In this document: positions 1 to 19,416 of the stretch, one piece after another
How positions within the stretch are numbered: the stretch's first letter is position 1
Layout of the letters: every line of letters starts with the position of its first letter
Assembly (NCBI GenBank): GCA_023135545.1
Contig: JAGLSY010000004.1
Location: 1 to 24,820 of the forward strand
Length of the DNA stretch: 24,820 nt
DNA from: Thermoplasmata archaeon
GTDB lineage: Archaea; Thermoplasmatota; Thermoplasmata; SG8-5; JAGLSY01
Direction of reading: 5' to 3'
Notes under the pieces: model-generated
Database searches by the model: none
Seen by the model: only the letters and a program-made list of their open reading frames with translations
Told to the model about the DNA's origin: nothing
Program-made: the position numbers and the translations under genes

Positions 1-312
1 GGGCTTAATCAGCTCCGTGGGCGGCGGGAACTCGGATGTGAGCACAACCACCTTGCTGCATATGCTCTTCTCGAGGCATATGGGCTTGCCGGAATATATT
101 CTGAGGGGCGGCAGGGGCACGGAATCGGAGATTATCGCGGTTGGGTAGAAATGTCTGGATGATACCAGGCCGACATACTCCAGGTTGAGCATCTTTATGA
201 GATAATTGGACACTATCGTGCTTACCATGCCAACACTCGGAAAGCCCTCGATAAGAACGGCATCCTTCATGTCAACTTCCTTCCTCTCTATTATGGCTAT
301 GTCGTCATCCAA
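1..312 (-). CDS. PAC2-family proteasome assembly chaperone (3' end runs off the window)
   Basis: Absent from the ORF track; read by hand. TTG start at 312, GGTGA RBS 4 nt upstream. Translation LDDDIAIIERKEVDMKDAVLIEGFPSVGMVSTIVSNYLIKMLNLEYVGLVSSRHFYPTAII...PPLRIY...VVVLTSEFPPP; the frame is open to position 1. GFP(G/S)VG.V..I...YL is the PAC2 signature. Confidence 0.9.
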   Translation of the reverse strand, partial: MDDDIAIIERKEVDMKDAVLIEGFPSVGMVSTIVSNYLIKMLNLEYVGLVSSRHFYPTAIISDSVPLPPLRIYSGKPICLEKSICSKVVVLTSEFPPPTELIKP

Positions 313-460
313 AATATCACCGCATCATGAATCTGAACCTGATACTTAACATTTAATACGTAATATAAAGAAACGATATAGAAAATCAGATATCAAGTGT
401 GTAGTAGAAGGACGCCAATCTTTATCTACATGTTTCCTTTTATTAGAGTCAGGTGACGAC

Positions 461-1339
461 TTGTCAGATGTCCAGAGCCAACTGTTGAGAGGAAGTTTCA
501 AGCTCACAAGGGTGGGTGTGACCGATGTCAAAAAACCGGTCTGCGTGAAGAGGCCGGATAGAGAGATCACTCTAACAGCCACATTTAACCTTTTTGTAGA
601 CCTGCCAGCAGAGCTGAAGGGCTCCCATCTTTCCAGGAATCTGGAGGTGCTTTCACAGGTGCTGGACGAGTGCGTGCGCGGGCAGGCCGTCAGCCTCGAA
701 ACCCTTGGGGCCAGGATATGTGCCGAGCTGTTGAAGAGGCACGAGTACGCCACATGCTCCGAGGTGCAGATATCGGCAGATTACTTCATTGAGAGGGAGG
801 TCAACGGCGGAACCAGCAGCCTGGAGAGATACCTGATAAAGGCATCTGCCATCGATTACCGGGAAGGGCAGTCAAGAAAATCCATAGGTGTCGAGGTTAT
901 CGGAATGACGGCGTGTCCCTGCGCAATGGAGGAGGTTCGCGACAGGTTCGTATCAAGGCATCCGGAGCAGAATGAACTGCTGACCGCCATCCCGATAATC
1001 ACCCACAACCAGCGCAATATAAGCAGTCTGGAGGTGGAGATTCCCGGCGACCATGATGTGGAAGCCGAAGATTTGATCGACATACTGGAGGGGGCGTTGA
1101 GCAGCCCGACACGCGAGATACTCAAGCGGGAACATGAGGCGGACATCGTGGAAAGGGCCCATACCAATCCCAAGTTCGTGGAGGACGTGGTCAGGGATGT
1201 TCTCGGGGCCGTCCTGGAAAAATATCGCGATATGCCGGATGATGTGAAGGTCATGGTGAAAAGCGAGAGCCAGGAGTCCATCCACAAGCACAACGCCTTT
1301 GCCGAGAGGGTCACCACACTGGGGGAATTGAGAGAATGA
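461..1339 (+). CDS. mptA: GTP cyclohydrolase MptA (FolE2/GCH-IB-IV family)
   Basis: TTG start after AGGTGA RBS. Motifs LTRVGV..VKKP, KGSHLSR, GMTACPCA, THNQR, AHTNPKFVEDVVR and ESIHKHNA are characteristic of FolE2/MptA. Confidence 0.93.
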   Translation: MSDVQSQLLRGSFKLTRVGVTDVKKPVCVKRPDREITLTATFNLFVDLPAELKGSHLSRNLEVLSQVLDECVRGQAVSLETLGARICAELLKRHEYATCSEVQISADYFIEREVNGGTSSLERYLIKASAIDYREGQSRKSIGVEVIGMTACPCAMEEVRDRFVSRHPEQNELLTAIPIITHNQRNISSLEVEIPGDHDVEAEDLIDILEGALSSPTREILKREHEADIVERAHTNPKFVEDVVRDVLGAVLEKYRDMPDDVKVMVKSESQESIHKHNAFAERVTTLGELRE

Positions 1340-6364: not shown

Positions 6365-6862
6365 TCAATCCTGGTAAAAGGTGATGGTCTGCACATCCTC
6401 GACCTTTTTTATCTTCTCTATTATCTTGGCCGGTATGGGTGTGTCGGTTATGATGTAGAGAAGCCCCGCGGAAGTGGCCGGGCACTGCGCCTGCCTGATG
6501 GATATCCCTCCCTGGCCGATAATGCTGGTTATCTCTCCCATTGTGCCGGGTTTACCGGTGTAGCAGATGTCCAATCCAATCACTCCCCAGCCCATATCGA
6601 GGGCCACATCGAAGAGGTTGCAGGTCGGCCTAAGCTTGGAATAGATACGGTATAACCTGGGGTTCTCATGGATTGTTTTTACGGTGGCCGTCACTATCCT
6701 CTTGTCCTTCCCCAGAGCATTGGCCAATTGAGAGTGCGACAGCGCAACCTTGTCAAAAAAAAGTTTCTTTCCTTCCACATGTACACCTATTTCCAACATG
6801 TATCTGGCAACCTCTGCCTGGGATGGCAGGCGTGAAAAATCATTCTCTATCTTGGTCCACAT
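6365..6862 (-). CDS. ACT-domain putative amino-acid-responsive regulator (COG2150/AF1403-like)
   Basis: N-terminus MWTKIENDFSRLPSQAEVARYMLEIG, HTH-like SQLANALGKDKRIVTATVKTI, and C-terminal ACT fold KPGTMGEITSIIGQGGISIRQA...LYIITDTPIP match the archaeal COG2150 family. Confidence 0.8.
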   Translation of the reverse strand: MWTKIENDFSRLPSQAEVARYMLEIGVHVEGKKLFFDKVALSHSQLANALGKDKRIVTATVKTIHENPRLYRIYSKLRPTCNLFDVALDMGWGVIGLDICYTGKPGTMGEITSIIGQGGISIRQAQCPATSAGLLYIITDTPIPAKIIEKIKKVEDVQTITFYQD

Positions 6863-6940: not shown

Positions 6941-7073
6941 GATAAGTATTTAATATGTTAACAATTATTATGTATGTAAGTATCTAACATTAATGTACCG
7001 AAATGATGCGAAAAATGTTTTATAGATTAACAATCATTGTATGTATTAATATCTAACATTGATGTATCAAAAT
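6941..7073 (+). promoter_or_regulatory. Tandem duplicated promoter (69-nt period) with palindromic operator-like sites
   Basis: TATA boxes TTTAATAT (6949) and TTTTATAG (7018) are each followed by a 47-nt direct repeat (6958-7004, 7027-7073) containing TATCTAACATT(A/G)ATGTA. ACATTAATGT at 6987-6996 is a perfect palindrome. Confidence 0.75.
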
Positions 7074-7107: not shown

Positions 7108-9915
7108 ATGAAAGTGAAATTACTGGCAGTCACTATGACTGCCATGATGATAATGAGTGGGCTAGGGATTATGAGTGTCGGGAGCAATGTAGAAACTAAC
7201 GAAAACTATGGGGCACCAACAAAAACATATGGCTCAGCACCACCCGGCTATGTGCCGCATTCTGTACAGAGAACTGCACTTGCCGAGGATTTTACAGAGT
7301 GGGGCTGCGGCCCTTGTGCGGGTCATAACCCTCAATGGACGGGGGCCATCGATGCGGTTGGGTATGATATTGTGGCTCCGGCATATGTTCACGTATGGTG
7401 GCCGGTGGGAACCGACCCTATATACGCGTATTGCGACGGAGACGGCTCGGTGACCGAGAGGGTTAATTATTACGGGGTTTTAGGTGTTCCAGATACCTTC
7501 CTTGATGGAGGGGATATCGCTACAGGACAAACCCAAGCTGCATATGAAACAGCATTCCAGAACGCGGCAGCAATACCATCCTCAATAATTCTGGACACGT
7601 CAGGGAGCAATATAAATGATGTCTTGCTGGATGGTGTATTGAACCTGCACATAGAAGCATCAGATGCCATTGCCTCTTCAAACCTAAAGGTCTTTGTTTA
7701 CCTCTGGGAAACCAATATTATCAGAGCCCTGGACGGAGATGCACCACCATATCCCAACGGTGAAACAGAATTAGATTGGGCCGTATGGGACATATTACCA
7801 GATGGTGGAACTGGCGACCCGATTTGGCCCGCCGGTGCCAGCCCCGGAGACTGGATCGATGTTTCTTACCCCCTCACACTCGGCGCAGACTGGGTTGCCG
7901 ATGATATCGGATGCACGGTGTTCATTCAGGATACCACAACGAGGGAAGTGTACCAGGCAACTGTCGAGCTTTTCGATAATCAACCCCCGGTAGTATCTCT
8001 GGATACACCAGATTCATACCTCGCTGAACAGGTTCTGGGCGGAACCATTCCGATAACATGGACAGCTACCGATTATGAGGATGATGACACCACACTGGAC
8101 ATATCAATTGATTACAGTGCCGACGGTGGAAACACCTGGATCAACATAATGAGCGGCACGGACAATAATGTCGCGCCCTTCACATTTAACTGGGACACTG
8201 ACGGTATAATCCCAGATGGAATTGGATACAAGCTTCGGGTCAAGGCCCTTGACTCCCTAGGCAACTTCAGATTAGCTACCAGCTCTGAGTGCCTCACCAT
8301 AGACAATATAGCAGATGATGAATGGTACTTCCAGGTGGAATCCACCGGGGCTTTGCAGGACCTGAGCATACAGCCTGCCGAAACCTCCATTAATATTGAG
8401 ACCACCGCGGACATAACGGTCGCAGGCGATTACCAGGTGGGAGCCTGGGAGACCATCCAGACCTTCAGCGGCAAGAGCATCAACGGTGACTGGACCTTCA
8501 GAACATACGGAAAGACGCCTAACCCAGGTCTGGTTGCGTTGGAGGGATATCTTTACGCAAAGGTCTTCTCATCTTCAAACCTGGCAACACCGATTTACAC
8601 GACCGCCCTGGACAACGAGGACGTCGGAACCTTCCAGACATCTCATTTATTTGAATGGACCGAAGCATTGTCCGGTGATATTGTATCCGGAGACAGTCTG
8701 GTGATAGAGATATGGCTTAATGTGGTCGGCGGACCATACACCAGCGGTTACGGTGAGACACTGAACCCCGGCTTTGATACCGATGCCTCATCCTGGGCCT
8801 TCAATATTTGGGTCGATGGTGACGGAAAAGGATTAACTACTGGCAGCTACCAGGCAGCAGGTGGAAATCCCGGCGGATACGTGGATATTTATCTTCCAAA
8901 CCCCCAGGGCAAGCCCAATGATTACTATGAATATTCAGGATATTGGGAGCAATCATTCACCACTGGATTCGTGCCTTATTCCGCCACGCTGTTGGTTGAT
9001 TTCAAATACATTGTACCAAGCGCGGATACAACGACAATAACATACTTTGCATTTGTGGACACTGCACCCGGAACACCGGTATTGGGCACAGAGGTCTGGA
9101 GCACCACCGTCGAGGCCATTACCCCATGGATAACAGTGGAGCCTACTGATTTGAGCCATGTCGTCAATGCAGATACAACCTATTACCTGAAAATGGCCTT
9201 CAAACACGACTCCATAAACATGGGCGAAGGGCCCTGCATTGGCGGATACGACAATATCCAACTGGTCTGGGAGAACTCCTATCCTGTATTCGAGATGGAA
9301 TATGATTATGGCCCGTCACAATCCAATGTTGTTCCAACCATCGGAGTCGGAGTGCCGCCAATAAACTACAATATAGACACCAGCGGAGAATCGGCCAATG
9401 GCTGGGTATTCGTATCCTTCCCGATAACGGCAACTGGACCTGTTACGACGGTCTTCGATGACACATTCTGGGGCGGAGGCGGCGGTACTACATGGGACAT
9501 AATCATGTGGTACGACCCGGCAGATGTCGGTGGAGACCACTGGAAGTCCTACAACAAACTGCAAGAGGCTGCCGGAATTACCCAGGACATGCCAAATGTC
9601 AATAACAGAATGGGCGTGTGGGTGCATCTTCTGACCAATGACAATGCATTGACCATTGGAGAAGGTCAAAACCCAGCAGGTACGACAGTTGACCTGGATA
9701 TCGGCTGGAACCTGGTTGGATACCCATCCCTATCAGGGACATACAGTGCAGGAGACCTGAAGGCCGATTCAGATGATGGTGGAATGCTGATAGAGCGCTT
9801 CAACGATGCCGCAGCATACGACCTTGAATCTATGCCTGATGGAGACAACTTCCTGGCAGGAAATGCCTACTGGGTCTACGCCACTGCAGCATACGGCTGG
9901 ATAGTAGCACCATAA
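7108..9915 (+). CDS. Secreted multidomain protein (935 aa): signal peptide, Omp28-type thioredoxin domain (CGPC) with C-terminal beta-sandwich, Ig/FN3-like domain with Asp-box, beta-rich domains, C-terminal duplicated GW(N/V)xVxxP domain
   Basis: GGAGG RBS; N-terminal signal peptide; RTALAEDFTEWGCGPC...YGVLGVPDTFLDG...VFIQDTTTREVYQA resembles Omp28; SADGGNTW Asp-box at 8107-8139; NGWVFVSFP and IGWNLVGYP repeats; no C-terminal TM. Confidence 0.85.
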   Translation: MKVKLLAVTMTAMMIMSGLGIMSVGSNVETNENYGAPTKTYGSAPPGYVPHSVQRTALAEDFTEWGCGPCAGHNPQWTGAIDAVGYDIVAPAYVHVWWPVGTDPIYAYCDGDGSVTERVNYYGVLGVPDTFLDGGDIATGQTQAAYETAFQNAAAIPSSIILDTSGSNINDVLLDGVLNLHIEASDAIASSNLKVFVYLWETNIIRALDGDAPPYPNGETELDWAVWDILPDGGTGDPIWPAGASPGDWIDVSYPLTLGADWVADDIGCTVFIQDTTTREVYQATVELFDNQPPVVSLDTPDSYLAEQVLGGTIPITWTATDYEDDDTTLDISIDYSADGGNTWINIMSGTDNNVAPFTFNWDTDGIIPDGIGYKLRVKALDSLGNFRLATSSECLTIDNIADDEWYFQVESTGALQDLSIQPAETSINIETTADITVAGDYQVGAWETIQTFSGKSINGDWTFRTYGKTPNPGLVALEGYLYAKVFSSSNLATPIYTTALDNEDVGTFQTSHLFEWTEALSGDIVSGDSLVIEIWLNVVGGPYTSGYGETLNPGFDTDASSWAFNIWVDGDGKGLTTGSYQAAGGNPGGYVDIYLPNPQGKPNDYYEYSGYWEQSFTTGFVPYSATLLVDFKYIVPSADTTTITYFAFVDTAPGTPVLGTEVWSTTVEAITPWITVEPTDLSHVVNADTTYYLKMAFKHDSINMGEGPCIGGYDNIQLVWENSYPVFEMEYDYGPSQSNVVPTIGVGVPPINYNIDTSGESANGWVFVSFPITATGPVTTVFDDTFWGGGGGTTWDIIMWYDPADVGGDHWKSYNKLQEAAGITQDMPNVNNRMGVWVHLLTNDNALTIGEGQNPAGTTVDLDIGWNLVGYPSLSGTYSAGDLKADSDDGGMLIERFNDAAAYDLESMPDGDNFLAGNAYWVYATAAYGWIVAP

Positions 9916-9937
9916 GCCAAACAGGACAAGCCAAAAT

Positions 9938-9974
9938 AGGGAAGGTTAAGTGCCTTCCCTCCATTTCATTTTTG
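9938..9974 (+). terminator. Hairpin plus T-rich tract after the 935-aa gene
   Basis: AGGGAAGG-ttaagtg-CCTTCCCT (8-bp perfect stem, 9938-9960) followed by CCATTTCATTTTTG. Confidence 0.6.
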
Positions 9975-10044
9975 ATTGAACAACCATCATAAACAATATA
10001 GGAAAAAAGAATCACAGTAGCATAAACATATAGAGGGATATAAA

Positions 10045-12765
10045 ATGAAGAAAGCCATTAGCATGATGATTACTGGTATATTATTCACAGCTCTTTTAGT
10101 GAGCGGCGTTGCCCCATTTATGACAGCGCAGCCAGAACCAGAGCAAACGACCGGGATTATGCCTATATACGAGGTTTACATGACACCCGAGCACCCCATC
10201 GGCGCCAGCGACTGGATGGGCGCAACCGAAAAGGTCTCGGGGAACGATGCCGATCAAATTACGCTCCATGTTAAGGCTGACCCCATTGCGAATTGGGCAG
10301 AGGTCAGGACCGGGTTCTGTAATAACAACACCTGTGTGGATGTTTGGGATGAATTCAACCCTTGGTATGAGATGACACATCTTGGCAACGGAGAGTTCGA
10401 ATATGTCTTGCCCGGCGACCACTTAAATGAACTGGATAAATTTTATTTGGCTTCAGAAAGCGACTTGATGTACGTAACTTATCAGATATTGGTGGGAATT
10501 GATCCTAGCTGGGTTGATTATTCATATTATCCTGATTATAACGGTAATGCCCTTGACCTGCAGGACGATGAATATGTTAAATTCTACCCCACCTGGGCAC
10601 CGACCCAGACAAATGCCACCAGCCAGGTTTCCAAAGCTGTGTTGTATCCTGGAGAGACCTTCTGGGTGAACGGTACGTCCAATTACTGGAACAGCACGTC
10701 CTATCCTGGTGATTACTCGAAGCTGATTCCGGTTTCACAAACCAACGTAACTGTTTCATTCAATCCCTCCCAGACCATTAAGACCGATGATAATGGAAAT
10801 TATTCATTCCAGTTCACGGCCCCCCTGGCCCCCAGCACTTACATGGTGAACACCACCTTGACCAATAATACACCAAACTGGAACGGTAACCAAACTAGAA
10901 ACGTGCCGTGTGTTTCCCCTGAAACTCAAATTGAGGTCCTGGACTTCGATATTGAGGTCAACGCCGTGCCCAATGCCACCTACCCGAACAAGGACATTTC
11001 CGTGAATGGAGATGTGCTTTGGGGGGATGCCAGTGCAGTTACCACAGGCTCTCCGGTCAGCATATCCATTGTCGAAACTGGCGATTCCTGGAACACGAAC
11101 ACTAACGCGGCCGGCCATTATGACCAGACCATCACGGTTCCGGGCATTGCCCAAGCATACACAATTCAAGTTGAGGTTGATGACACAGCCACTGGCCATG
11201 TCAATACCAATCAGACCGAGTTGACCGTGAGAACTCCATCAATGATGCTTTCAGTTGAGGCCAGTTCCTCCACAACCCTTCCAGACCAGACCTTGACAAT
11301 GACCGGCCATGCAGAATACGGAAATAGCGATATCGCAGACAGCTGCGAGGTCAACATAACAATTGACGGAGAGACCGGATACTGGAACGGTACGACAGAT
11401 GTAAATGGCAACTATTCCATCAACATAACCACGCCATTGACCGTCGGAAACTACACGGTGAATGCCACGGTCGAAAGCACCCTGTACGGAATAAGCGACG
11501 AGGAACAAACCGATATTCAAGTGGTGGCAGTGCCCGTGCCAGATCTCACGATAGTGGCCAGTTCGGTGACCATAACCGCCCCTGATGGAATGTTCGAGGG
11601 CGAGGAAGTCAACTTCACTGCGATGGTGAAGAATGTTGGTATAGCCAACGCGACCGATGTTCTCGTCAGCTTCCTGGTGGATGGGGTTGAAGTTGATAAT
11701 GAAACAGTTGATCTTCTGATCGGCGCAAATACCACAATCACGGTAACATGGCCGGCAGTTGCAGGGAATCATACTCTTAACATATCGGCGGACCCGGAAA
11801 ACACAATTACAGAGTCATTCGAGAACAACAATGTAGCCACCAAGGCCTTCGACATAGACATGGACACGGACGGCGACGGAATAGGCGACCTTACTGACCC
11901 GGATATTGATGGAGATGGCTACAACAACACCGATGATGATTTCCCGGAGGATGCGACAGAGTGGCTGGACTCGGATGAAGATGGAGAAGGTGACAACGCA
12001 GATACCGATGACGATGGCGACGGCGTGCCGGATGTCGATGACGACTTCCCGCTGGACCCCACTGAGGACACGGACACAGATGATGATGGGGTTGGTGACA
12101 ATGCAGACACAGATGATGATGGCGACGGGGTGCTTGATGTCGATGATGCCTTCCCGCTGGATGATGCTGAAACAGCCGATTATGATGGGGATGGAATAGG
12201 CGACAATGCCGACCCGGATGATGATGAGGACGGCTACCTGGACGCTTCCGAGGACCCCGAGCTGTGGGACACGGACAATGACGGATTGACCAATGACATC
12301 GACAATGACGATGACAATGATGGGACACTTGACACCTCAGATACCATGCCCCTTGACACCGACAATGACGGCCTGACCAATGCCGAGGACGATGATGACG
12401 ATGGGGATGGGGTTCTAGATAAGGATGAGGACCTGAACTGGAACGGCATTGTCGATGATAATGAGACCAGTCCTACAAACTCGGACACGGATGGGGATGG
12501 GGTGGATGACAAGGAGGACTATGATCCACTGGACCCCGAGGTCAGCCTGAGCTCGGACGTGAATGATGGTGATGGTGGCTTGATCATCTTTGGCATTGTA
12601 GGCATAGTTCTTATAGTCGCAGCCATCTTGGGAATGATGATGATGTCCAAGGGCAAGGGCCCGGGTAATACTGGAACAGAAGAAACCGAGCCAGAAGCCA
12701 AAGAAGATACTGCTGCAACTGAATCAGCCGAGGCCCCGGAGACACCAGTCAACAAGACCGATTAA
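10045..12765 (+). CDS. Membrane-anchored surface protein (906 aa): signal peptide, C-x4-C domain, Ig-like repeats, CARDB domain, thrombospondin type-3 Ca-binding repeats, C-terminal TM, acidic tail
   Basis: MKKAISMMITGILFTALLVSGVAP signal; TDDNGNYS/TNAAGHYD/TDVNGNYS Ig repeats; PDLTI...VKNVG...ADPENTITESFENNN (CARDB); DxDxDGxGD repeats; TM GGLIIFGIVGIVLIVAAILGMMMM. Confidence 0.88.
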   Translation: MKKAISMMITGILFTALLVSGVAPFMTAQPEPEQTTGIMPIYEVYMTPEHPIGASDWMGATEKVSGNDADQITLHVKADPIANWAEVRTGFCNNNTCVDVWDEFNPWYEMTHLGNGEFEYVLPGDHLNELDKFYLASESDLMYVTYQILVGIDPSWVDYSYYPDYNGNALDLQDDEYVKFYPTWAPTQTNATSQVSKAVLYPGETFWVNGTSNYWNSTSYPGDYSKLIPVSQTNVTVSFNPSQTIKTDDNGNYSFQFTAPLAPSTYMVNTTLTNNTPNWNGNQTRNVPCVSPETQIEVLDFDIEVNAVPNATYPNKDISVNGDVLWGDASAVTTGSPVSISIVETGDSWNTNTNAAGHYDQTITVPGIAQAYTIQVEVDDTATGHVNTNQTELTVRTPSMMLSVEASSSTTLPDQTLTMTGHAEYGNSDIADSCEVNITIDGETGYWNGTTDVNGNYSINITTPLTVGNYTVNATVESTLYGISDEEQTDIQVVAVPVPDLTIVASSVTITAPDGMFEGEEVNFTAMVKNVGIANATDVLVSFLVDGVEVDNETVDLLIGANTTITVTWPAVAGNHTLNISADPENTITESFENNNVATKAFDIDMDTDGDGIGDLTDPDIDGDGYNNTDDDFPEDATEWLDSDEDGEGDNADTDDDGDGVPDVDDDFPLDPTEDTDTDDDGVGDNADTDDDGDGVLDVDDAFPLDDAETADYDGDGIGDNADPDDDEDGYLDASEDPELWDTDNDGLTNDIDNDDDNDGTLDTSDTMPLDTDNDGLTNAEDDDDDGDGVLDKDEDLNWNGIVDDNETSPTNSDTDGDGVDDKEDYDPLDPEVSLSSDVNDGDGGLIIFGIVGIVLIVAAILGMMMMSKGKGPGNTGTEETEPEAKEDTAATESAEAPETPVNKTD
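11851..12537 (+). repeat. Asp-rich thrombospondin type-3-like repeat tract
   Basis: Repeated D(T/M/Y)D(G/D/N)DG..(D/N) and D.FP.D units. Confidence 0.9.
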
Positions 12766-12774
12766 GGTAATAAT

Positions 12775-15729
12775 ATGCAGCTGGCCACCTATCGTAGGAC
12801 CTCACAGATCGCCTTCCTAGTGCTTACACTGGCCGGGATACTCTTCGGCCTCAGTGCGACCGGAATAATATATCCCTACTTCTTCTGCTACTCATGTCCC
12901 TGGGATATCGGGGCATGTCCAATCGGGATACTGGAACACTCGGTCATCGACATACAGATAGAGGGATTGTTCTGGACGGGCATGGCAATGCTGGGATTCC
13001 TTATCGGATTCATGGTCCTGATTGGCATGATATTCGGAAGAGGCTTCTGCGGCTGGGGCTGCCCGGTGGGTGCCCTGCAGGATGTGACACGAAAGACCGG
13101 CATTGGTAAGTTCCTCAACAAGAAGATAGGAGGGGAGATCGACCACCGTGTCAAGTACATCAAGTATCTGATTTTGATATCCATTCCCATCCTGTCCTAC
13201 TGGGCCAAGGACCTGTTCTATACCACCTTCTGCCCGGTCGGCGGAATAACCGGGACTGTTCCCACCCTGACATTCTACTTTTCTGAATGGACGCTAGGAA
13301 CCACCTTCCCTATCAAGATTACCTCCATCGTGCTTTTCGTGATACTTATCCTCCTGGTCGTTAGGGGATGGTGCAAGTATCTGTGCCCGGTCGGAGCATT
13401 CCTGGCCCCCTTGAATTACAAGGCTGGTGTGAACCTTTCAAGAAAGGAAGAGACATGTGCCAACTGTAATCTCTGCGAGCGGGCCTGCCCAATGGACGTG
13501 AAGGGCATGGGAAGGCATGAGGATGCGGAGTGCATTCTCTGCGGCAGGTGCGTGGATGTTTGCCGACACAAATCACTAAAACTGGGTTCGAGATTTGCCA
13601 AGGGAAGGATGGTTGGTTTCCTGCCCTGGATAATCGTAATCATACTGGCATCCAGTCTAATGATCTCCGGGGCCTATTACAGTGGATATGAAAGGGTGGA
13701 TGCAATAAACGCCATTCCCTGTCTGGGATGCCTGGCCCTTGACCCTGTCAGCCCCGATGACTGGTTCTTTTACGATGAGGATACAAACACCCATCAGCAA
13801 TTCGTGCTGGATGACCTCGAAAGCGGCCCTGTATTCCTCCACTATCGAACCATCGTGTGCGCGGCATGCGATGAGATGGAGCCTTACATCGAAGAACTTG
13901 AAGAGGACTACGGCAACCGGATAAAATTCATCCACATAAACCTGGACCTGGCACCCGAGGATGAGGTAGCCAGTTACTACGATTATGATATCCTGGGCAC
14001 GCCGGATGACACCTCCGGGGTTCCGCTCTTCGCCATCGTGACACTCAACGAGACGGCAGATGGAAATGTCCCGATTTTCAAGTCGGTCTACGGCTCGTCC
14101 AGTGATGGCGGCAGGTCCAAGAAGGGCGACCTGGAGAAAGTGATTGTGAACGCTACGGCCATGTACCAGGAGGTTGCCGGCTCCATCGTGATAATCGACT
14201 CGGAGAAGATGCCGATGGTAGAGCTCTTCGTTGATATGAACTGTGTCTGGTGCCCTTCCTCGGAGGATGCACTGGTCGAGCTGGAGCATGAGGGCATCAC
14301 GAACTACATCACCTACACAACCGATGTCGTCGGCGTGTCTGGCAATTATTCGACTTACAGGGAGATTGAACATCAGGGCTCGATTAACGGGTTGACAGCG
14401 AGCCAGGGCCATCCCTGGGCCGTGTTCAACGGCGGGCCAATCAACAACCTGGGTGGAGGAGGCGGGATAAAAGATGATTATCTGGTGGATCTGGCTGTGT
14501 CAGGTTATTCACCGGTAAATCTCTCCATCGACGGAACCCTAGGTGAGGAATCACAGAACCTCCAGGCCAGCATCACCCTTTCCAATCCTGATGAGGTAAG
14601 TCAATCGATTGATGTGAAGGCCATGCTGGTCGAAAAGATATCACAATTTCCCAACATCCGCGGAGACCCAATACCCAATGCCTTCATTGACATTCTGGTG
14701 AACCAGACCTATGATATCGGTTCCGGTGAAACCGAGGCAATCAATGTCACCTGGGATGGGACAGATGTGTTACCTTATTCGGATTTCAGGCTGAGCAATC
14801 TGGCCCTTGTGGTTTCGGCATGGGAGGATGGAGTTCTAATAAACTCGAAGACCATCGATGCCGGAATCGAGGAGGCCCTGCTCTGGGAAGTGGATGATGA
14901 CCATCTGTCAGTCCGGCCCAACACCACCGCCTATGTCGAACTCACCTTGTGGAATTATCTGGATTCTGAATTGACAGTAAACCTCTCGGCCATCGTGCCA
15001 AATGCCAATTGGGTCGTCAACCTTTCGGCGGACAATGCAACAATTCCGGCACTGGGCTCCCATACCATAACCGCAGATATAACCAACTCGGATACCGCAC
15101 TGGGCGATTTGGCAGAGATCAGGATCAGGGCCAGGGGTGTCATCGACTCGACGGTTGACATAAGCCGGAAGATTGAAATCGTCGTGAAAGACGACATACT
15201 GCCGCCTACAATAGCATCTTCGGATTACGAGCCCCGTGAGCCGCTGGCCACCGACCAGATTAACATGTCCGCCATGATTGGCGATCTGTCGCCGCTCAAA
15301 TCCGTCAAGCTACTTTACTACTCCTGCACCGACGAGGTCTGCTCCCCAACTTTCGAACTGAACATGACCACCCAGGATGGGAACACCTACACGGCCAGTG
15401 CCTTCCCTGTCGAGGTCGAGCACAACATATTCCACTACAAGATCATAGCTACTGACGAGGCCGACAATGTTCAGGAATCGGAATGGTACGATGTGGAGCT
15501 GGAGCCAGTCCTTCCGCCGGAGCATCATCAGGGCGGTGATACAGGCACTTTCAACACCTTCGGAATCGCCGGCCTTCTGATATTCGCCATGGTGGCCATC
15601 GGCCTCAATATTGCCAGGATAAAGCAGAACCCAAAGAAAAAAATTGAGAAAAAGGAAGATGAAGAAGAAATTTCCAAAGAGCCAGATGTGGAATCTTTGG
15701 AAGAAGTTGCCCCAAACACAAAGCAATGA
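12775..15729 (+). CDS. Fusion protein (984 aa): NapH/MauN/CcoG-type 4-TM polyferredoxin with 2x[4Fe-4S], TM, CxxC linker, thioredoxin domain, Omp28-type thioredoxin domain, Ig-like stalk, C-terminal TM
   Basis: CYSCP..GACPIG (C38); GRGFCGWGCPVG, FCPVG and RGWCKYLCPVGA; ferredoxin motifs CANCNLCERAC (C228) and CILCGRCVDVC (C253); TM aa ~279-302; CLGC (C316); CAAC (C362) with GVP; CVWC (C490) with GHP; TM aa ~929-947. Gap of 9 nt from the upstream gene. Confidence 0.9.
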   Translation: MQLATYRRTSQIAFLVLTLAGILFGLSATGIIYPYFFCYSCPWDIGACPIGILEHSVIDIQIEGLFWTGMAMLGFLIGFMVLIGMIFGRGFCGWGCPVGALQDVTRKTGIGKFLNKKIGGEIDHRVKYIKYLILISIPILSYWAKDLFYTTFCPVGGITGTVPTLTFYFSEWTLGTTFPIKITSIVLFVILILLVVRGWCKYLCPVGAFLAPLNYKAGVNLSRKEETCANCNLCERACPMDVKGMGRHEDAECILCGRCVDVCRHKSLKLGSRFAKGRMVGFLPWIIVIILASSLMISGAYYSGYERVDAINAIPCLGCLALDPVSPDDWFFYDEDTNTHQQFVLDDLESGPVFLHYRTIVCAACDEMEPYIEELEEDYGNRIKFIHINLDLAPEDEVASYYDYDILGTPDDTSGVPLFAIVTLNETADGNVPIFKSVYGSSSDGGRSKKGDLEKVIVNATAMYQEVAGSIVIIDSEKMPMVELFVDMNCVWCPSSEDALVELEHEGITNYITYTTDVVGVSGNYSTYREIEHQGSINGLTASQGHPWAVFNGGPINNLGGGGGIKDDYLVDLAVSGYSPVNLSIDGTLGEESQNLQASITLSNPDEVSQSIDVKAMLVEKISQFPNIRGDPIPNAFIDILVNQTYDIGSGETEAINVTWDGTDVLPYSDFRLSNLALVVSAWEDGVLINSKTIDAGIEEALLWEVDDDHLSVRPNTTAYVELTLWNYLDSELTVNLSAIVPNANWVVNLSADNATIPALGSHTITADITNSDTALGDLAEIRIRARGVIDSTVDISRKIEIVVKDDILPPTIASSDYEPREPLATDQINMSAMIGDLSPLKSVKLLYYSCTDEVCSPTFELNMTTQDGNTYTASAFPVEVEHNIFHYKIIATDEADNVQESEWYDVELEPVLPPEHHQGGDTGTFNTFGIAGLLIFAMVAIGLNIARIKQNPKKKIEKKEDEEEISKEPDVESLEEVAPNTKQ

Positions 15730-15902
15730 GTTCTGTGAGTTATTCTCCAACTCATTAAGCACCTCAACTGGCCAGCGTGGGTCCCAGTGTCAGATAGCAT
15801 GGGTCTCAGCATTATACATTATGGTGGGGGATGGTAGGAGGGCATGGATAGCACCAATGGCGGAGGTTTCAACGCACTAACCCCCAACTCCATAAACTCC
15901 CA
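15728..15902. repeat. GAGTT-type repeats directly after both convergent stop codons
   Basis: + strand GAGTTCTGTGAGTT at 15728-15741; - strand GGAGTTTATGGAGTT downstream of the stop at 15903. Confidence 0.55.
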
Positions 15903-16667
15903 TCAGATAAAGAATAAAGCCGCCATCACCAGTATCCCGCCGAAGCAGATCATCATTATACCAGAGAATTTTTGAATCCGGAGAAGCCTCGTCATCTGTT
16001 TCTCCTTGTCGGCCAGTGTTGTACTGAAGGACGCAATAAGTACGGATGGAAGGGCAGTCCCAAGGCCGAATATGAAGAAGGCCAGACCGCCTAACACCGC
16101 CCCAACAATCGGGCTGGTCGCCAACTCTGCCGTGAATATTCCGACAAAGATGGTCTCGATGGCCAGCACGGTCTCGCCGATGCAGGCGATGCTGACAAGG
16201 CCCCCCCACAAAAAAAGGCCTGTCCTGGTCTTCGGGGTAACCATGTCGAACCTGGCCAGCAATGGATGGAGCATGCCATTATCGCATGCTCCGTTTTCAT
16301 CACCTCTGGGTTCATCCGGCTCTTCCAGACGCTCGGAAATTGTTGCAAAAATGAAGGTGCCGTAGACTATCATCAAGCACCCGACTATGCCGTAGCCAGC
16401 CGCCCAGATCGTCGAGCCGACCGCGAATTCCTCCACTCCTTCGCGGATGATATAGCCTCCGGCGCCGATGGCCGCCCCCAGCAAGGTCAGCAATAACACT
16501 CTGGGCGCGTTGAACCACAGTGCTATTTTTAGTCCTTTTTTCCAAGTTCCGCGCTCCTCGACCAGTGTCGGCATAATGGATGGTATGCAGAGTGCCAGGC
16601 ATGAGCTGGCTCCCCTTCTTATCCCCCATAAAAAGCCGATTGACAGGGCGCCGAGTATCGTTAACAT
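15903..16667 (-). CDS. DsbD_2/TauE-SafE-like (CcdA-related) polytopic membrane protein
   Basis: AGGAGA RBS; about 6 TM helices; C-x3-C (SSCLALCIP) in TM1, FNAPRVLLLTLLGA..G..G, SIACIGE in TM4, and GLGTALP motifs fit the DsbD_2 family. Confidence 0.75.
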   Translation of the reverse strand: MLTILGALSIGFLWGIRRGASSCLALCIPSIMPTLVEERGTWKKGLKIALWFNAPRVLLLTLLGAAIGAGGYIIREGVEEFAVGSTIWAAGYGIVGCLMIVYGTFIFATISERLEEPDEPRGDENGACDNGMLHPLLARFDMVTPKTRTGLFLWGGLVSIACIGETVLAIETIFVGIFTAELATSPIVGAVLGGLAFFIFGLGTALPSVLIASFSTTLADKEKQMTRLLRIQKFSGIMMICFGGILVMAALFFI

Positions 16668-16882: not shown

Positions 16883-16965
16883 ACTGAGCGTTCTCTGCCA
16901 TTTTGCAGTAAGGGAAAAATATATGATTGTATATTGTTTTTCATTTGAATGGGAGAGGTACTTGG

Positions 16966-19416
16966 TTGTCAGCTGAAGAAAGTTCTATTATCGGGACATT
17001 ATCATTGCCCGAAGCTCACAAAGAGCAATTTCTCTGGCACGTCATCATTTGGTTGGAAATCCTTCTCATAATCATGGTGGTTATATCCTCTGGCTTGAAT
17101 GAATGGGCTGATATTCAATCAAAGGTCTTCAACATCGCCTTTGTGGGTGTTCTCATAATCTCTTTTATAATTGGTCTGGGGCTTTTTATGGCCTACAAAC
17201 CGAAGGTCGAAAAACAAGGGATCCTTATATTCCTCCTATTTCTTACTGGCTGTCAGATCATATCCAGTGGAACAATGCTCTACCAGCTTGGGAGATCCGA
17301 GACCGTGGAATTCATCATCATTATATTGACTGGCCTAGCGATCGCCGCCCTGGGATTGGGATTGATGATGCTCAAGCTCAAGCACACAAGCAGAATGACT
17401 GGCTTCTATTCATTGTGGTTGTTCGGCATACTGCTGATCCTTTTTATGCCCCTTCACGAACTCGAAATGCTGGAATACAGTAGCAGGGATAACTTGATGG
17501 GCTATCTTGGCCTGATAATCACAATCATTGGATCGCTATCCTTTTCCATCGAATATAGACAAAGCAAGAATTTTGAAGCTTGGGTCATCTCGGGGGATGC
17601 GAAGTACATTGCTGGGAAATACGACAAGGCAGTGGAATATTACGAAAAGGCCCTGGCCATTGATGGGGAGAATGCCCTCATATTGTCCAGCAAAGGTTCG
17701 GCACTTCTGAGATTGAGCATGTGGTCCAGAGCATTGGAATGCTTCGATAGGGCTCTGGAATTTGAGCCCGAACAGGCCCTGGCTATCGGGGGAAAGGGTC
17801 TCGCATTAAGCTATTTGAAACGATATTCAGAGGCTCTTACATATCATGATCTGTCCATCAAGGTGGGCCGGGAAGCGGTCGGGTGGAACAATAAGGGCAA
17901 TACCCTCTTCCGCATGAATGCGCCGAATGATGAGATAATGACATGTTATGAAAACGCCATTATAGCAGAGCCAGATTATTCAAATGCATGGTTTAACAAG
18001 GGTAAGTCCGAATTGAATCAGGGTTGGTATGAGAAGGCAGCGGATTCCTTCGCAAGGGTCGTGGAACTGAGGCCTGATTTCTCGGCTGCCTGGTTCCAGA
18101 GAGGTAAATCCCTTTCATTATCCGGATCAAAGGAGGAGGCCCTGTTCTGTCATGACATGGCCATACAACTCAATCCCGCAAACACCGAGGCCTGGATGGA
18201 AAGAAAGATCATACTTGTATCCTCGGTAAAGAAGAAGATGAGACCGATACCGGTCATCACCATCACGGATGGCATGCCCATCTTTGGACCGGATGGCCAA
18301 AAGAGGAAGATGATACCGGCCACACTTCCTGAAAAGGTGGATAGAGGAGTGTCTGGAGATGATACGGGACGTCAGAAGGCGATCGTCTTGGCGAGCCGAG
18401 GTAATTATGATGGGGCGATCAATATGCTCCAGAAACAAATAGCCAAAGAGCCGGAAGATACTGTTAATTACATCACCCAAGGAATGATGATGACGCGAAT
18501 GGAGAGACTGGATGAGGCTTTGGAATCATTTGAAAAGGCAATTCAGATACAGCCAGACTGGGTCGGACCCTGGTTCTGCAAGGGAATGGTACTGGCGGCA
18601 ATGAACAGGTATGACGAGGCCGTCGTGGCACTGGACAAGGCCATCTCCCTAAGGTACAACTACACAGATGCCTGGTCTGTGAAAGGATTGATATATGGGA
18701 TCCTTCGCAGATATCAAGAGGCGATTGAATGCTTTGACAAAGTTACCGAGTTACACCCGGATGATGAAGAGGCCTGGCGGTCAAAGGGAATTGCACTGAA
18801 CAAGCTGGGTCGATATGAGGAGGCCATCCAGTGCTTTGAGAATATAGTGCTCCTCAAGCCGGGCATAGACGGTATATACACATTCCTGGATGAAGAAAAG
18901 GATAAGCTCCAGGATGCCAGGGACATGTTCAAGGTTGGAGTCGAATTGGCAAAGTTAAGAGAATATGATTCTGCAATAGAATTCCTGGAGAAGGCCGTGA
19001 AACTCAGACCAAACTATATGGAAGCCCTGTATATTTTCGGTGTCGTGTACGGTGTTATAGGAGATTATGAAAATGCTATGCGTTATTTCGAGAGGGTGCT
19101 GGAAATAAAGCCGGAACATATTGAAGCTCTCTATGCAAAGGGAAATATCCTGCTCAAGGAGGGGAAGAATTCCGAAGCCCTTGAATTCTTCAAGAACGTG
19201 CTGGACCTGAAAGAAAGCCATGTGGATGCCTGGTGTGATAAAGGCCAGGCATTCGTTGGACTGGGTGAATATGATAGCGCGGTGGAGTGTTTTGATAATG
19301 CCCTGAGGCAGTCTGGAGATCATCAGAGAAGCATATCTTCAAGGGAGAGCTGTGTCAAACTAATGAATTTGATGGAAGAGAGTGGGGAAAAAGAAGAGGA
19401 TATGGTCTTACCGTAA
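16966..19416 (+). CDS. Membrane protein with ~6 N-terminal TM helices and ~15 TPR repeats in two blocks
   Basis: Likely TTG start at 16966 after GGAGAGGT (ORF track starts at 16927). Hydrophobic N-terminal ~200 aa, then repeated AW..KG..L..L..Y.EA..C(F/Y)..A....P units. Confidence 0.88.
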   Translation: MSAEESSIIGTLSLPEAHKEQFLWHVIIWLEILLIIMVVISSGLNEWADIQSKVFNIAFVGVLIISFIIGLGLFMAYKPKVEKQGILIFLLFLTGCQIISSGTMLYQLGRSETVEFIIIILTGLAIAALGLGLMMLKLKHTSRMTGFYSLWLFGILLILFMPLHELEMLEYSSRDNLMGYLGLIITIIGSLSFSIEYRQSKNFEAWVISGDAKYIAGKYDKAVEYYEKALAIDGENALILSSKGSALLRLSMWSRALECFDRALEFEPEQALAIGGKGLALSYLKRYSEALTYHDLSIKVGREAVGWNNKGNTLFRMNAPNDEIMTCYENAIIAEPDYSNAWFNKGKSELNQGWYEKAADSFARVVELRPDFSAAWFQRGKSLSLSGSKEEALFCHDMAIQLNPANTEAWMERKIILVSSVKKKMRPIPVITITDGMPIFGPDGQKRKMIPATLPEKVDRGVSGDDTGRQKAIVLASRGNYDGAINMLQKQIAKEPEDTVNYITQGMMMTRMERLDEALESFEKAIQIQPDWVGPWFCKGMVLAAMNRYDEAVVALDKAISLRYNYTDAWSVKGLIYGILRRYQEAIECFDKVTELHPDDEEAWRSKGIALNKLGRYEEAIQCFENIVLLKPGIDGIYTFLDEEKDKLQDARDMFKVGVELAKLREYDSAIEFLEKAVKLRPNYMEALYIFGVVYGVIGDYENAMRYFERVLEIKPEHIEALYAKGNILLKEGKNSEALEFFKNVLDLKESHVDAWCDKGQAFVGLGEYDSAVECFDNALRQSGDHQRSISSRESCVKLMNLMEESGEKEEDMVLP

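Follow-up and report, generated by a model that had tools for sequence, protein, structure and literature searches.

A polyferredoxin fused to outward-facing thioredoxins in a conserved gene cluster of Thermoplasmata: a candidate surface thiol-redox module

Introduction

By what means could an anaerobic archaeon drive thiol chemistry on the outside of its cell? This question is raised by four adjacent genes in a stretch of 24,820 nucleotides (nt) from a Thermoplasmata archaeon (GenBank assembly GCA_023135545.1, contig JAGLSY010000004.1, positions 1 to 24,820 of the forward strand), which was analysed as a whole and is referred to here as the window. The genes encode P1, an exported protein tipped by a thioredoxin domain; P2, an anchored surface protein with a CARDB domain; P3, a membrane polyferredoxin fused to two outward-facing thioredoxin domains; and P4, a membrane protein of the DsbD_2/UreH-like kind. 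Since the co-occurrence of these genes in other genomes, the conservation of their cysteine (Cys) motifs and the features of their thioredoxin domains all held, a conserved surface thiol-redox module is supported. The best explanation of the whole, to which we assign a probability of about one half, is a surface thiol relay fed by iron-sulfur (Fe-S) clusters with P3 as its engine.

To our knowledge, thiol chemistry outside the cytoplasm is energised in two known ways, by the DsbD/CcdA cysteine cascades fed by cytoplasmic thioredoxin and by the quinone-coupled oxidases DsbB and VKOR. If the proposed relay is real, a polyferredoxin fused to outward thioredoxins would be a third route, and through it the redox state of surface thiols would depend directly on the low-potential Fe-S/ferredoxin pool found in anaerobes. 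The archaeal version supplies candidate clients (two large surface proteins with conserved Cys pairs) together with a candidate metal permease, and the purpose of a thioredoxin on the outside therefore becomes approachable by experiment. It may be relevant, too, to the acquisition of metals by uncultured sediment archaea in sulfidic habitats, or to the way in which they cope with sulfur stress.

Materials and methods

The window was traced to DNA runs of cold-seep metagenomes (all runs containing it were DNA), and the homologues of P1-P4 carried the database labels Thermoplasmata or Thermoplasmatota. Genomes were surveyed in a 301-genome sample of the class (cited by codes such as G002), and 22 genomes were searched in the window's own order. 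Families f1, f3 and f4 belong to that order, and f18 and f14 are other families. Most of the genomes compared are incomplete metagenome-assembled genomes; they are related to one another, and the counts given below do not constitute a statistical test. Helix layouts were derived from hydropathy and charge, and the hhalign figures for P2 against P3 refer to the '-M first' setting.

Conserved clustering of the genes in Thermoplasmata

The order P1-P2-P3 was kept in genomes of three families (G002, G003, G007, G010, G006, G016 and G020), with P3 identities of 43-70% (tblastn). The polyferredoxin and the thioredoxin arm form one protein in f1, f3 and f4, and in f18 and f14 they are divided between two genes that overlap. 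Where the arm is split off (G208, G172, G166, G226, G184 and G031), the second gene always opens with a transmembrane (TM) helix and a C[LI]GC motif, and it overlaps the end of the polyferredoxin gene.

In G208 (f18), genes for a helix-turn-helix (HTH) protein with two CxxC pairs, a P4-like protein, a P1-like protein (CGPC), a P2-like CARDB protein (C-x4-C), a polyferredoxin of 278 aa and a protein of 636 aa follow one another in the same direction with overlaps, the last of them combining the TM helix and CLGC, both thioredoxin domains (Trx1 and Trx2) and an immunoglobulin (Ig)-like domain with C-x4-C. A co-directional overlapping operon of this kind was also found in G172, with P1 and P4 exchanged (P1-P4-P2-polyferredoxin-thioredoxin). 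The system is split further in G031, where the gene for Trx2-Ig ends in an overlap with the P4-like gene, and G166, G226 and G184 have only the overlapping polyferredoxin-thioredoxin pair, P4 being located elsewhere in the genome. The co-directional loci of f18 are the strongest evidence that these genes travel together.

P4 was convergent beside P3 in G000, G001, G002, G004, G006, G010 and G021, and probably in G008. Across the sample, 20 genomes carried the exterior module, 29 carried a member of the P4 family and 16 carried both. The layout is thus that of a fused or translationally coupled core (polyferredoxin, TM-CLGC element and thioredoxins) with P1 and P2 as frequent companions and P4 as a looser accessory. 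A preliminary description of this DNA had proposed a single four-gene system, with the genes and all Cys motifs at the same coordinates as those found here. The four genes do co-occur in other Thermoplasmata genomes, being gathered in one operon in f18, and P1-P2-P3 recurs in a conserved order, but P4 proved to be a loosely linked accessory that was unlinked or not found in some carriers.

Because the search of 22 genomes of the window's order left 8 in which the module was not detected, two of them 92-94% complete, it is an accessory trait and not a housekeeping one. General disulfide maintenance of surface proteins, which had been among the purposes suggested earlier, is unlikely on the same grounds, and so is oxidative folding as a general housekeeping function, given this patchy distribution.

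A NapH/MauN-like Fe-S module joined to a thioredoxin arm

The N-terminal part of P3 has the architecture of NapH/MauN proteins: four TM helices, two C-x3-C-P motifs and a 2x[4Fe-4S] domain inside, all with invariant motifs (Table 1). P3 passes the cut-off of Pfam Fer4_5 (PF12801; 46.9 bits, E 2.6e-12, cut-off 22) and also matches ferredoxin models, whereas it remains below the cut-offs of TIGR02163 (NapH/MauN; 90.7 bits, E 1e-25, against 213.05) and PRK09477 (NapH; 84 bits against 234). By its profile matches, P3 is therefore assigned to the Fer4_5 class as a NapH/MauN-like protein and not as a NapH/MauN equivalog. The names that databases give to the P3 family are generic ('4Fe-4S binding protein', 'NapH' or 'thioredoxin family protein').

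The helices seen in hydropathy were confirmed in a structure model. For the model of residues 1-335 (predicted local distance difference test score, pLDDT, 75.5), the nearest reviewed predicted models were MJ0750, YccM, NapH, MauN, NosR and NirI, and the membrane module gave TM-scores of 0.51-0.61 with the NapH and MauN models. Across 24 homologues (41-71% identity), 23 of the 24 Cys columns of P3 are conserved, one row being gapped at five N-terminal columns; C41 is replaced by Asn in five of these homologues.

Both thioredoxin domains of the exterior arm retain their key residues. Trx1, when excised, passes Pfam Thioredoxin (PF00085) with 23.9 bits (E 4.2e-5) against a cut-off of 23.5, and scores 20.6 bits within the whole protein; an alignment of 17 homologues shows no change at C362, C365, G415, V416 or P417. 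Trx2 has no Pfam match of its own, and its C490, C493 and P547 are invariant among aligned homologues. Together with the N-terminal domain of P1 (P1-N), Trx1 and Trx2 are predicted to be thioredoxin-fold domains with redox-type features, namely a CxxC motif and a cis-Pro-type loop. Redox inactivity of these domains is not indicated at the sequence level, since the CxxC motifs and the loops (GVP in Trx1 and P1, HP in Trx2) are kept, and the Cys motifs of all four proteins are likewise preserved across homologues.

Relatives of the parts of P3 also occur apart from the cluster. In G022 (L022:4627-7197), a standalone P3-type polyferredoxin is convergent with genes for a thioredoxin-reductase-like flavoprotein and a membrane-anchored thioredoxin-like protein. 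Genomes of family f12 have standalone Trx2 relatives of ~280 aa with CPYC and no polyferredoxin nearby (L045:7335-8156, L046:7723-8565 and L047:9087-9926).

The preliminary description had compared P3 with CcoG/FixG-type polyferredoxins. This comparison does not hold, because P3 is NapH/MauN-like and scores only 15.6 bits with the CcoG model TIGR02745, whose cut-off is 316.7. No oxidase gene was found among the window's genes, in agreement with what had been described, and COX1 (PF00115) was not found in five carriers (G000, G002, G003, G007 and G208), although nine control genomes gave matches. A role in cbb3-oxidase assembly was rejected on the basis of the CcoG score and the COX1 result. 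Cytochrome c maturation was also rejected as a purpose, since among the same number of carriers Ccm-type genes (PF01578) were found only in the window's genus. That genus has CcmF-/CcmC-type cytochrome c maturation genes (G000:C6:2005-13573), with COX1 not found, and another contig of the same genome encodes an open reading frame of 430 aa with a canonical DsbD_TM match (G000:C139:490-1269).

The surface proteins P1 and P2

The CxxC motif of P1 is invariant in 11 homologues while its dipeptide varies (GP, PP, PY, VP, SP, AP, GF and GY), and the cis-Pro-type GVP loop is kept, a Pro being invariant among the same homologues. The P1-N profile matches the 35 kDa hemin-binding protein HBP35 (PDB 5y1a; E 5.2e-7 over 225 residues) as well as many solved thioredoxins. 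With Pfam Omp28 (PF11551), P1 scores 17.9 bits (E 0.003) and its G172 homologue 31.5 bits, both below the cut-off of 34.9. Since the nearest Atlas clusters of P1-N and of P3 Trx2 are the same Omp28 clusters, and P1-N aligns with P3 residues 476-643 in hhalign (probability 89%, E 2.4e-6), the two domains appear to be paralogues of one HBP35/Omp28-like domain type. This relation is visible at the profile level; BLASTP of P1-N against the exterior part of P3 gave no significant match.

P2 is linked to P3 in a similar manner. The N-terminal domain of P2 and the Ig-like C-x4-C domain of P3 are homologues whose Cys pairs align (hhalign probability 93%, E 3.9e-7). A Cys pair was found at the place of C92/C97 in all 10 P2 orthologues examined, eight of them with the spacing x4, one with x3 and one with x8. 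Wherever the contig of a fused-form locus extends far enough to show it, the gene immediately before the polyferredoxin gene is P2, and the same holds for G208 and G172.

P4, a DsbD_2/UreH-like membrane protein

P4 has the layout of DsbD/CcdA-type proteins, with six TM helices and Cys residues in helix 1 and helix 4. C23, C27 and C162 are invariant in 28 close and 6 distant homologues. P4 itself is below the cut-off of DsbD_TM (PF02683; 22 bits against 27.1, with only residues 188-246 covered) and gave no DsbD_2 match at E 0.1 or better; among 18 family members, 10 match DsbD_TM (best E 1.4e-7) and 9 match DsbD_2 (PF13386; best E 9.5e-15). The family is small: when 1.84 billion representative proteins were searched with a profile, 48 reached E 1e-30 or better. 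P4 shares the helix-1 motif G-x3-C-x3-C-x-P with most of the 148 profile hits, including one that is HMA-fused.

The model of P4 (pLDDT 76.7) has six long helices, and its nearest reviewed models were UreH of Bacillus sp. TB-90 at the top (TM-score 0.57/0.62), RcnA, MntP and DsbD (0.56). Nothing significant was found when the family profile was compared with PDB sequences or when the model was searched against PDB with Foldseek. With hidden Markov model matches of the family and the helix-1 motif both present, P4 is placed in the LysE/DsbD superfamily, on its DsbD_2/UreH-like branch. The DsbD_2-type assignment made earlier is therefore correct as regards the family and the placement of the Cys residues, but P4 itself is sub-threshold and is also UreH/RcnA-like. 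Judged from profiles and the model, its fold and family are as compatible with a metal permease as with an electron carrier of the DsbD type.

The neighbours of P4 relatives include a number of metal-related genes. In G023, a P4 relative stands in a co-directional run with an ArsR regulator and a cation diffusion facilitator (CDF) transporter, and in G010, which belongs to the window's order, ZIP and CDF transporters are divergent from P4. A CDF transporter lies two genes from one relative; another is placed amid a cluster of FTR1, a regulator, FtsX-ABC and FtrD-like genes; another is beside HypF, HypA and a CobW-type GTPase, with a tetratricopeptide repeat (TPR) protein after it; and another is in a row of ferredoxin-like genes. 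Because metal transporters recur near the relatives and the fold is UreH/RcnA-like, a thiophilic-metal permease is at least as likely a role for P4 as a CcdA-like electron carrier.

Several other genes recur near P4. In family f1, genes for a UbiD-type decarboxylase, AcnX large and AcnX small precede P4 on the same strand, with a gap of ~12 nt (L014:2672-6614, L037:5499-9459 and L026:1112-5027), and the P4 relatives of G166 and G226 lie 2-4 kb from a UbiD-type gene. In f18, a small HTH_3 protein (115-133 aa) with two CxxC pairs is encoded directly before the P4-like gene (L040:2929-3276, L048:5568-5969 and L049:10236-10631) and may be a redox- or metal-sensing regulator. A GNAT acetyltransferase gene adjoins P4 kin between P3 and P4 in G010, beside P4 in G018 and before a distant relative. 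Large TPR proteins recur by P4 or the cluster, being found in the window, directly upstream of the G172 operon and after a P4 relative in a JGI contig (loci in Table 1); CcmH/CycH-type matches were obtained for those of the window and G172. TPR repeats are also found fused to NapH-like proteins in bacteria (P0058, P0061 and P0102).

Proposed electron path, its direction and alternatives

In the relay that we propose, electrons, presumably from ferredoxin, would be taken up at the cytoplasmic face by the two ferredoxin-type [4Fe-4S] sites and the two C-x3-C-P motifs, whose extra Cys residues may bind further clusters. They would cross to the outer-face Cys-Pro sites C38, C48 and C153, which would hand them to the CLGC pair at the membrane surface past the fifth helix. 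From CLGC, ordinary thiol-disulfide exchange could carry them to Trx1 (CAAC) and then Trx2 (CVWC). Likely partners or clients beyond Trx2 are the paralogous thioredoxin domain that tips P1 and/or the Ig-like C-x4-C domains in P2 and P3. P4 would be an accessory Cys3-Glu2 membrane protein, acting either as a thiophilic-metal permease or as a CcdA-like second electron conduit. It is likely that the element formed by the fifth helix and CLGC couples the Fe-S module to the thioredoxin arm. C153 is present in 17 of 17 polyferredoxins with a CLGC-thioredoxin partner, fused or adjacent, and is Asp in both standalone relatives (G022 and G025), although these two sequences are related, come from neighbouring lineages and may reflect a single event. 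This covariation suggests that the CLGC arm makes contact with the Fe-S module at its outer face.

Besides the narrow base of that covariation, several observations weigh against the proposed relay. A solved NapH-type membrane domain was not found by Foldseek or by sequence search of PDB, which gave generic ferredoxin-domain matches only. The contexts of the P4 family are heterogeneous, and some loci have no telling neighbours. Cold-seep sediment is anoxic and sulfidic, and surface thiols would tend to stay reduced there anyway; this weakens the need for a reductive system and thus leaves the oxidative direction open, for in such a setting it is the making of disulfides, and not the keeping of thiols, that needs a machine. 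P3 would then be a disulfide former like DsbB or VKOR, its thioredoxin domains oxidising exported Cys pairs such as the C-x4-C pairs of P2 and P3, and electrons would travel by way of CLGC and the NapH-like module, ending on a membrane quinone or on an acceptor in the cytoplasm. The combination of a membrane redox module, a surface CxxC and a fused thioredoxin indeed parallels VKOR-thioredoxin fusions and DsbB-DsbA, the conserved Cys pairs of P2 and P3 are co-encoded, and the Val-Pro loop is of the DsbA/glutaredoxin type too. On the other hand, ferredoxin-type clusters are usually of low potential and poor acceptors of dithiol electrons, the exported proteins here hold very few Cys, and the patchy distribution in the order speaks against a general folding catalyst. 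NapH has been regarded as a quinol-interacting subunit, yet the characterised NapH-like modules NosR and PceC are read as outward electron deliverers (Meheust et al., 2021; PMC8238504). Since such modules are mostly read as outward donors and low-potential clusters suit the reduction of thioredoxins, outward, reductive flow is somewhat favoured, and we consider the oxidative scheme unlikely.

The position of P4 gives rise to two other alternatives. P4 might be the real conduit, CcdA-like and fed by cytoplasmic thioredoxin, while the polyferredoxin of P3 senses or reduces a metal ion in the manner of CcoG. Its Cys residues are placed in CcdA/DsbD fashion, family members match DsbD_TM, the model resembles that of DsbD, and P4 shares an operon with thioredoxin genes in G208, G172 and G031. 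However, it is the polyferredoxin, and not P4, to which the thioredoxin arm is fused or translationally coupled; the pair occurs with no P4 nearby in G166, G226 and G184 and with no P4 detected in G016 and G020, and P4 was likewise not found in G011 and G013 (these last four genomes being 77-89% complete). P4 is structurally as near to UreH and RcnA as to DsbD, its relatives adjoin metal transporters, and P3 does not belong to CcoG. This scheme is accordingly improbable. Alternatively, the unit might consist of P1-P2-P3 only, with the proximity of P4 being inherited synteny and P4 belonging to adjoining isoprenoid or metal-transport genes. Consistent with this, P4 in f1 follows the mevalonate genes AcnX/UbiD co-directionally with a 12-nt gap (G002, G003 and G004) and stays there when the P1-P3 block moves (G003); it is unlinked to P1-P3 in G003 and G007, is convergent with P3 in the window's order and hence not co-transcribed with it, and is present in 13 genomes that lack the module. 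This reading seems quite improbable, considering that P4 takes four different positions (convergent after P3, first gene in G208, second in G172 and overlapping the Trx2-Ig end in G031), is on the same strand as the other cluster genes in the latter three genomes, keeps its adjacency to P3 in f3 and f4 despite differing other flanks, and occurs in 16 of the 20 module-bearing genomes against 13 of the 281 others.

Possible end uses

If the Fe-S-fed relay operates, a possible end use, at slightly less than even odds, is that its reduced Cys pairs capture thiophilic metals and hand them over, P4 serving as permease. About as likely, if a little more tentative, is that the relay reduces disulfides or persulfides of substrates at the surface or outside the cell, and there is a small chance that the system serves something else. 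A more specific form of the first, which we consider doubtful, is that a transmembrane ferredoxin:thioredoxin reductase 'wire' keeps surface Cys pairs reduced, so that they could strip Ni, Co, Zn, Cu or Fe from the sulfide complexes of seeps and pass them to the Cys3-Glu2 permease. If true, the cluster would encode a redox-powered, protein-based apparatus for harvesting metals, to which no described system corresponds.

Comparison with known systems

NapH-like modules are modular transmembrane electron conduits that are usually fused to an exterior flavin mononucleotide (FMN) domain (Meheust et al., 2021; PMC8238504). NosR and PceC (RdhC) resemble P3 in joining a NapH/Fer4_5 membrane module, with two C-x3-C-P motifs and cytoplasmic 2x[4Fe-4S], to an extracytoplasmic redox domain. 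In these proteins the latter is an exterior flavinylated FMN domain, whereas P3 carries a CxxC cascade (CLGC and two thioredoxin folds) placed after an extra fifth helix; by analogy, the thioredoxins would thus take the place of FMN in P3. No FMN_bind or ApbE signal was detected in a Pfam scan of the window's genes, and these genes include no NosZ- or PceA-like reductase near the cluster and no napG/napA/napB or mauM/methylamine dehydrogenase partners (for the last, a genome-wide search was not made). Many Planctomycetota proteins of ~1300 aa (among P0060-P0115) combine NapH-like Fer4_5, FMN_bind and a spermidine-synthase-like domain, and are unrelated to the cluster.

DsbD/CcdA, acting with ResA, CcmG, TlpA or DsbC, likewise pass redox equivalents across the membrane to outward CxxC thioredoxin folds, and P4 shares their fold and Cys placement. 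Their conduit is a pure Cys cascade fed by cytoplasmic thioredoxin, whereas the protein fused to thioredoxin here is an Fe-S protein; P4 also differs from them in its third invariant Cys, its two invariant Glu, its DsbD_2/UreH-like branch and its being dispensable for the core. VKOR-thioredoxin fusions and DsbB-DsbA share with P3 a membrane redox module, a CxxC at the membrane surface and an exterior thioredoxin fold, but VKOR and DsbB are oxidative and use a quinone within a bundle of four helices, in place of the polyferredoxin module of P3.

The cluster also resembles the FtrABCD and P19/FTR1 systems of iron uptake, which combine a metal permease with a membrane polyferredoxin (FtrD) and/or, in the Campylobacter type, exterior thioredoxin-like proteins. 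This resemblance is functional only: the candidate permease of the cluster is DsbD_2/UreH-like, and no FTR1, P19 or cupredoxin domain is present among the window's genes. HBP35 of Porphyromonas gingivalis and Omp28 have a CxxC thioredoxin fold followed by a beta-sandwich, a layout that P1-N and Trx2 appear to share; the domain differs here in its archaeal host, in being placed on a very long surface protein or fused to a polyferredoxin, and in Pfam scores below the cut-off. The cupric reductase CcoG/FixG is, like P3, a membrane polyferredoxin of the broad Fer4_5 class with a DsbD_2-type gene nearby, but P3 fails the cut-off of its model and COX1 was not found in the five carriers.

In full-text literature searches, we found no described NapH-like protein coupled to thioredoxins and no functional work on DsbD_2-type proteins of the P4 kind. 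New here are an archaeal version in which two thioredoxins stand in tandem, one being of the HBP35/Omp28-like type; the Ig domain with C-x4-C common to P3 and the co-encoded surface protein P2; the exported paralogue P1; and the link to a DsbD_2/UreH-like protein.

Features and flanks of the cluster

Table 1. Coordinates of the cluster proteins, their motifs and selected neighbouring genes. Nucleotide positions refer to the window unless a locus code is given.
Feature	Residues	Nucleotides	Strand or side	Description
P1		7108-9915	+	935 aa, exported; one N-terminal hydrophobic segment and no other
P1 signal/anchor segment	6-24		+	From hydropathy
P1 HBP35/Omp28-like thioredoxin and beta-sandwich	~45-295	~7240-7992	+	From profile
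P1 CGPC	67-70	7306-7317	+	Within WGCGPC, residues 65-70
P1 remaining domains	after ~295		+	Ig-like, and others without family match
P1 C-terminal domain	~739-935		+	Conserved, without annotation
P2		10045-12765	+	906 aa, C-terminally anchored surface protein
P2 C92-x4-C97		10318-10335	+	In N-terminal Ig-like, membrane-distal domain
P2 CARDB	499-600	11539-11844	+	Pfam E 3e-19
P2 Asp-rich thrombospondin-3-like repeats	~599-840		+	NCBIfam MtsC-type, E 7e-12, far below family cut-off
P2 TM segment	846-864	12580-12636	+	From hydropathy; followed by charged tail
P3		12775-15729	+	984 aa; starts 9 nt past P2
P3 NapH/MauN-like membrane Fe-S module	1-281	12775-13617	+	Four TM helices, N-terminus inside
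P3 loop	33-68		outside	C38, C41, C48
P3 loop	88-127		inside	C92-x3-C96-P
P3 loop	147-177		outside	C153-P
P3 loop	197-281		inside	C200-x3-C204-P and 2x[4Fe-4S] ferredoxin domain, eight Cys (C228-C263)
P3 fifth TM helix and CLGC element	282-324	13618-13746	+	Helix ~282-303
P3 CLGC	316-319	13720-13731	+	Invariant P-C-L-G-C-L-A-L-D-P at outer membrane surface
P3 exterior arm	305-928		outside	From hydropathy and charge
P3 Trx1, classical thioredoxin	~335-470	13777-14184	+	CAAC 362-365; G-V-P loop 415-417
P3 Trx2, thioredoxin fold and beta-sandwich	~476-700	14200-14874	+	CVWC 490-493; H-P loop 546-547
P3 further beta domains	between Trx2 and Ig-like domain		+	Exterior
P3 Ig-like domain with C851-x4-C856	~810-947 (with TM)	15202-15615	+	Membrane-proximal; Cys pair invariant
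P3 sixth TM helix	929-947		+	Followed by Lys-rich cytoplasmic tail
P4		15903-16667	-	254 aa, 6-helix membrane protein, convergent with P3
P4 helix 1 motif				C23-x3-C27-x-P, invariant
P4 helix 4 motif				C162-x-G-E165 ... E171; C162 and E165 invariant, E171 nearly invariant
TrpY-family ACT-domain protein		6365-6862	-	NCBIfam TrpY_fam E 3.9e-37, below cut-off; divergent from P1
TPR protein, window		16927-19416	+	
TPR proteins, other loci		L043:8113-9549; L053:6855-8711; L048:2395-5460		
GNAT acetyltransferases		L018:10653-11123; L035:4016-4486; L056:5480-5974		

The cluster is flanked in the window by genes for the TrpY-family ACT regulator, a 1356-aa surface protein with Ig/reelin repeats, the large TPR protein, and AcnX and UbiD-type proteins of the archaeal mevalonate pathway. 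The TrpY-family gene adjoins P1 also in G002, G003, G007 and G010. A role of its product as regulator of the P1-P3 operon is possible, and the operon may in that case answer to an amino acid.

Two noncoding segments are also of interest. Upstream of P1, positions 6941-7073 contain an apparent tandem duplication of an AT-rich, promoter-like segment, with ACATTAATGT and ACATTGATGT among the near-palindromes in the copies. Between P1 and P2, a hairpin at 9939-9974 (GGGAAGG...CCTTCCC) is followed by a T-run and then by AT-rich boxes ahead of P2, an arrangement that may let some transcripts end after P1 and P2-P3 be started separately.

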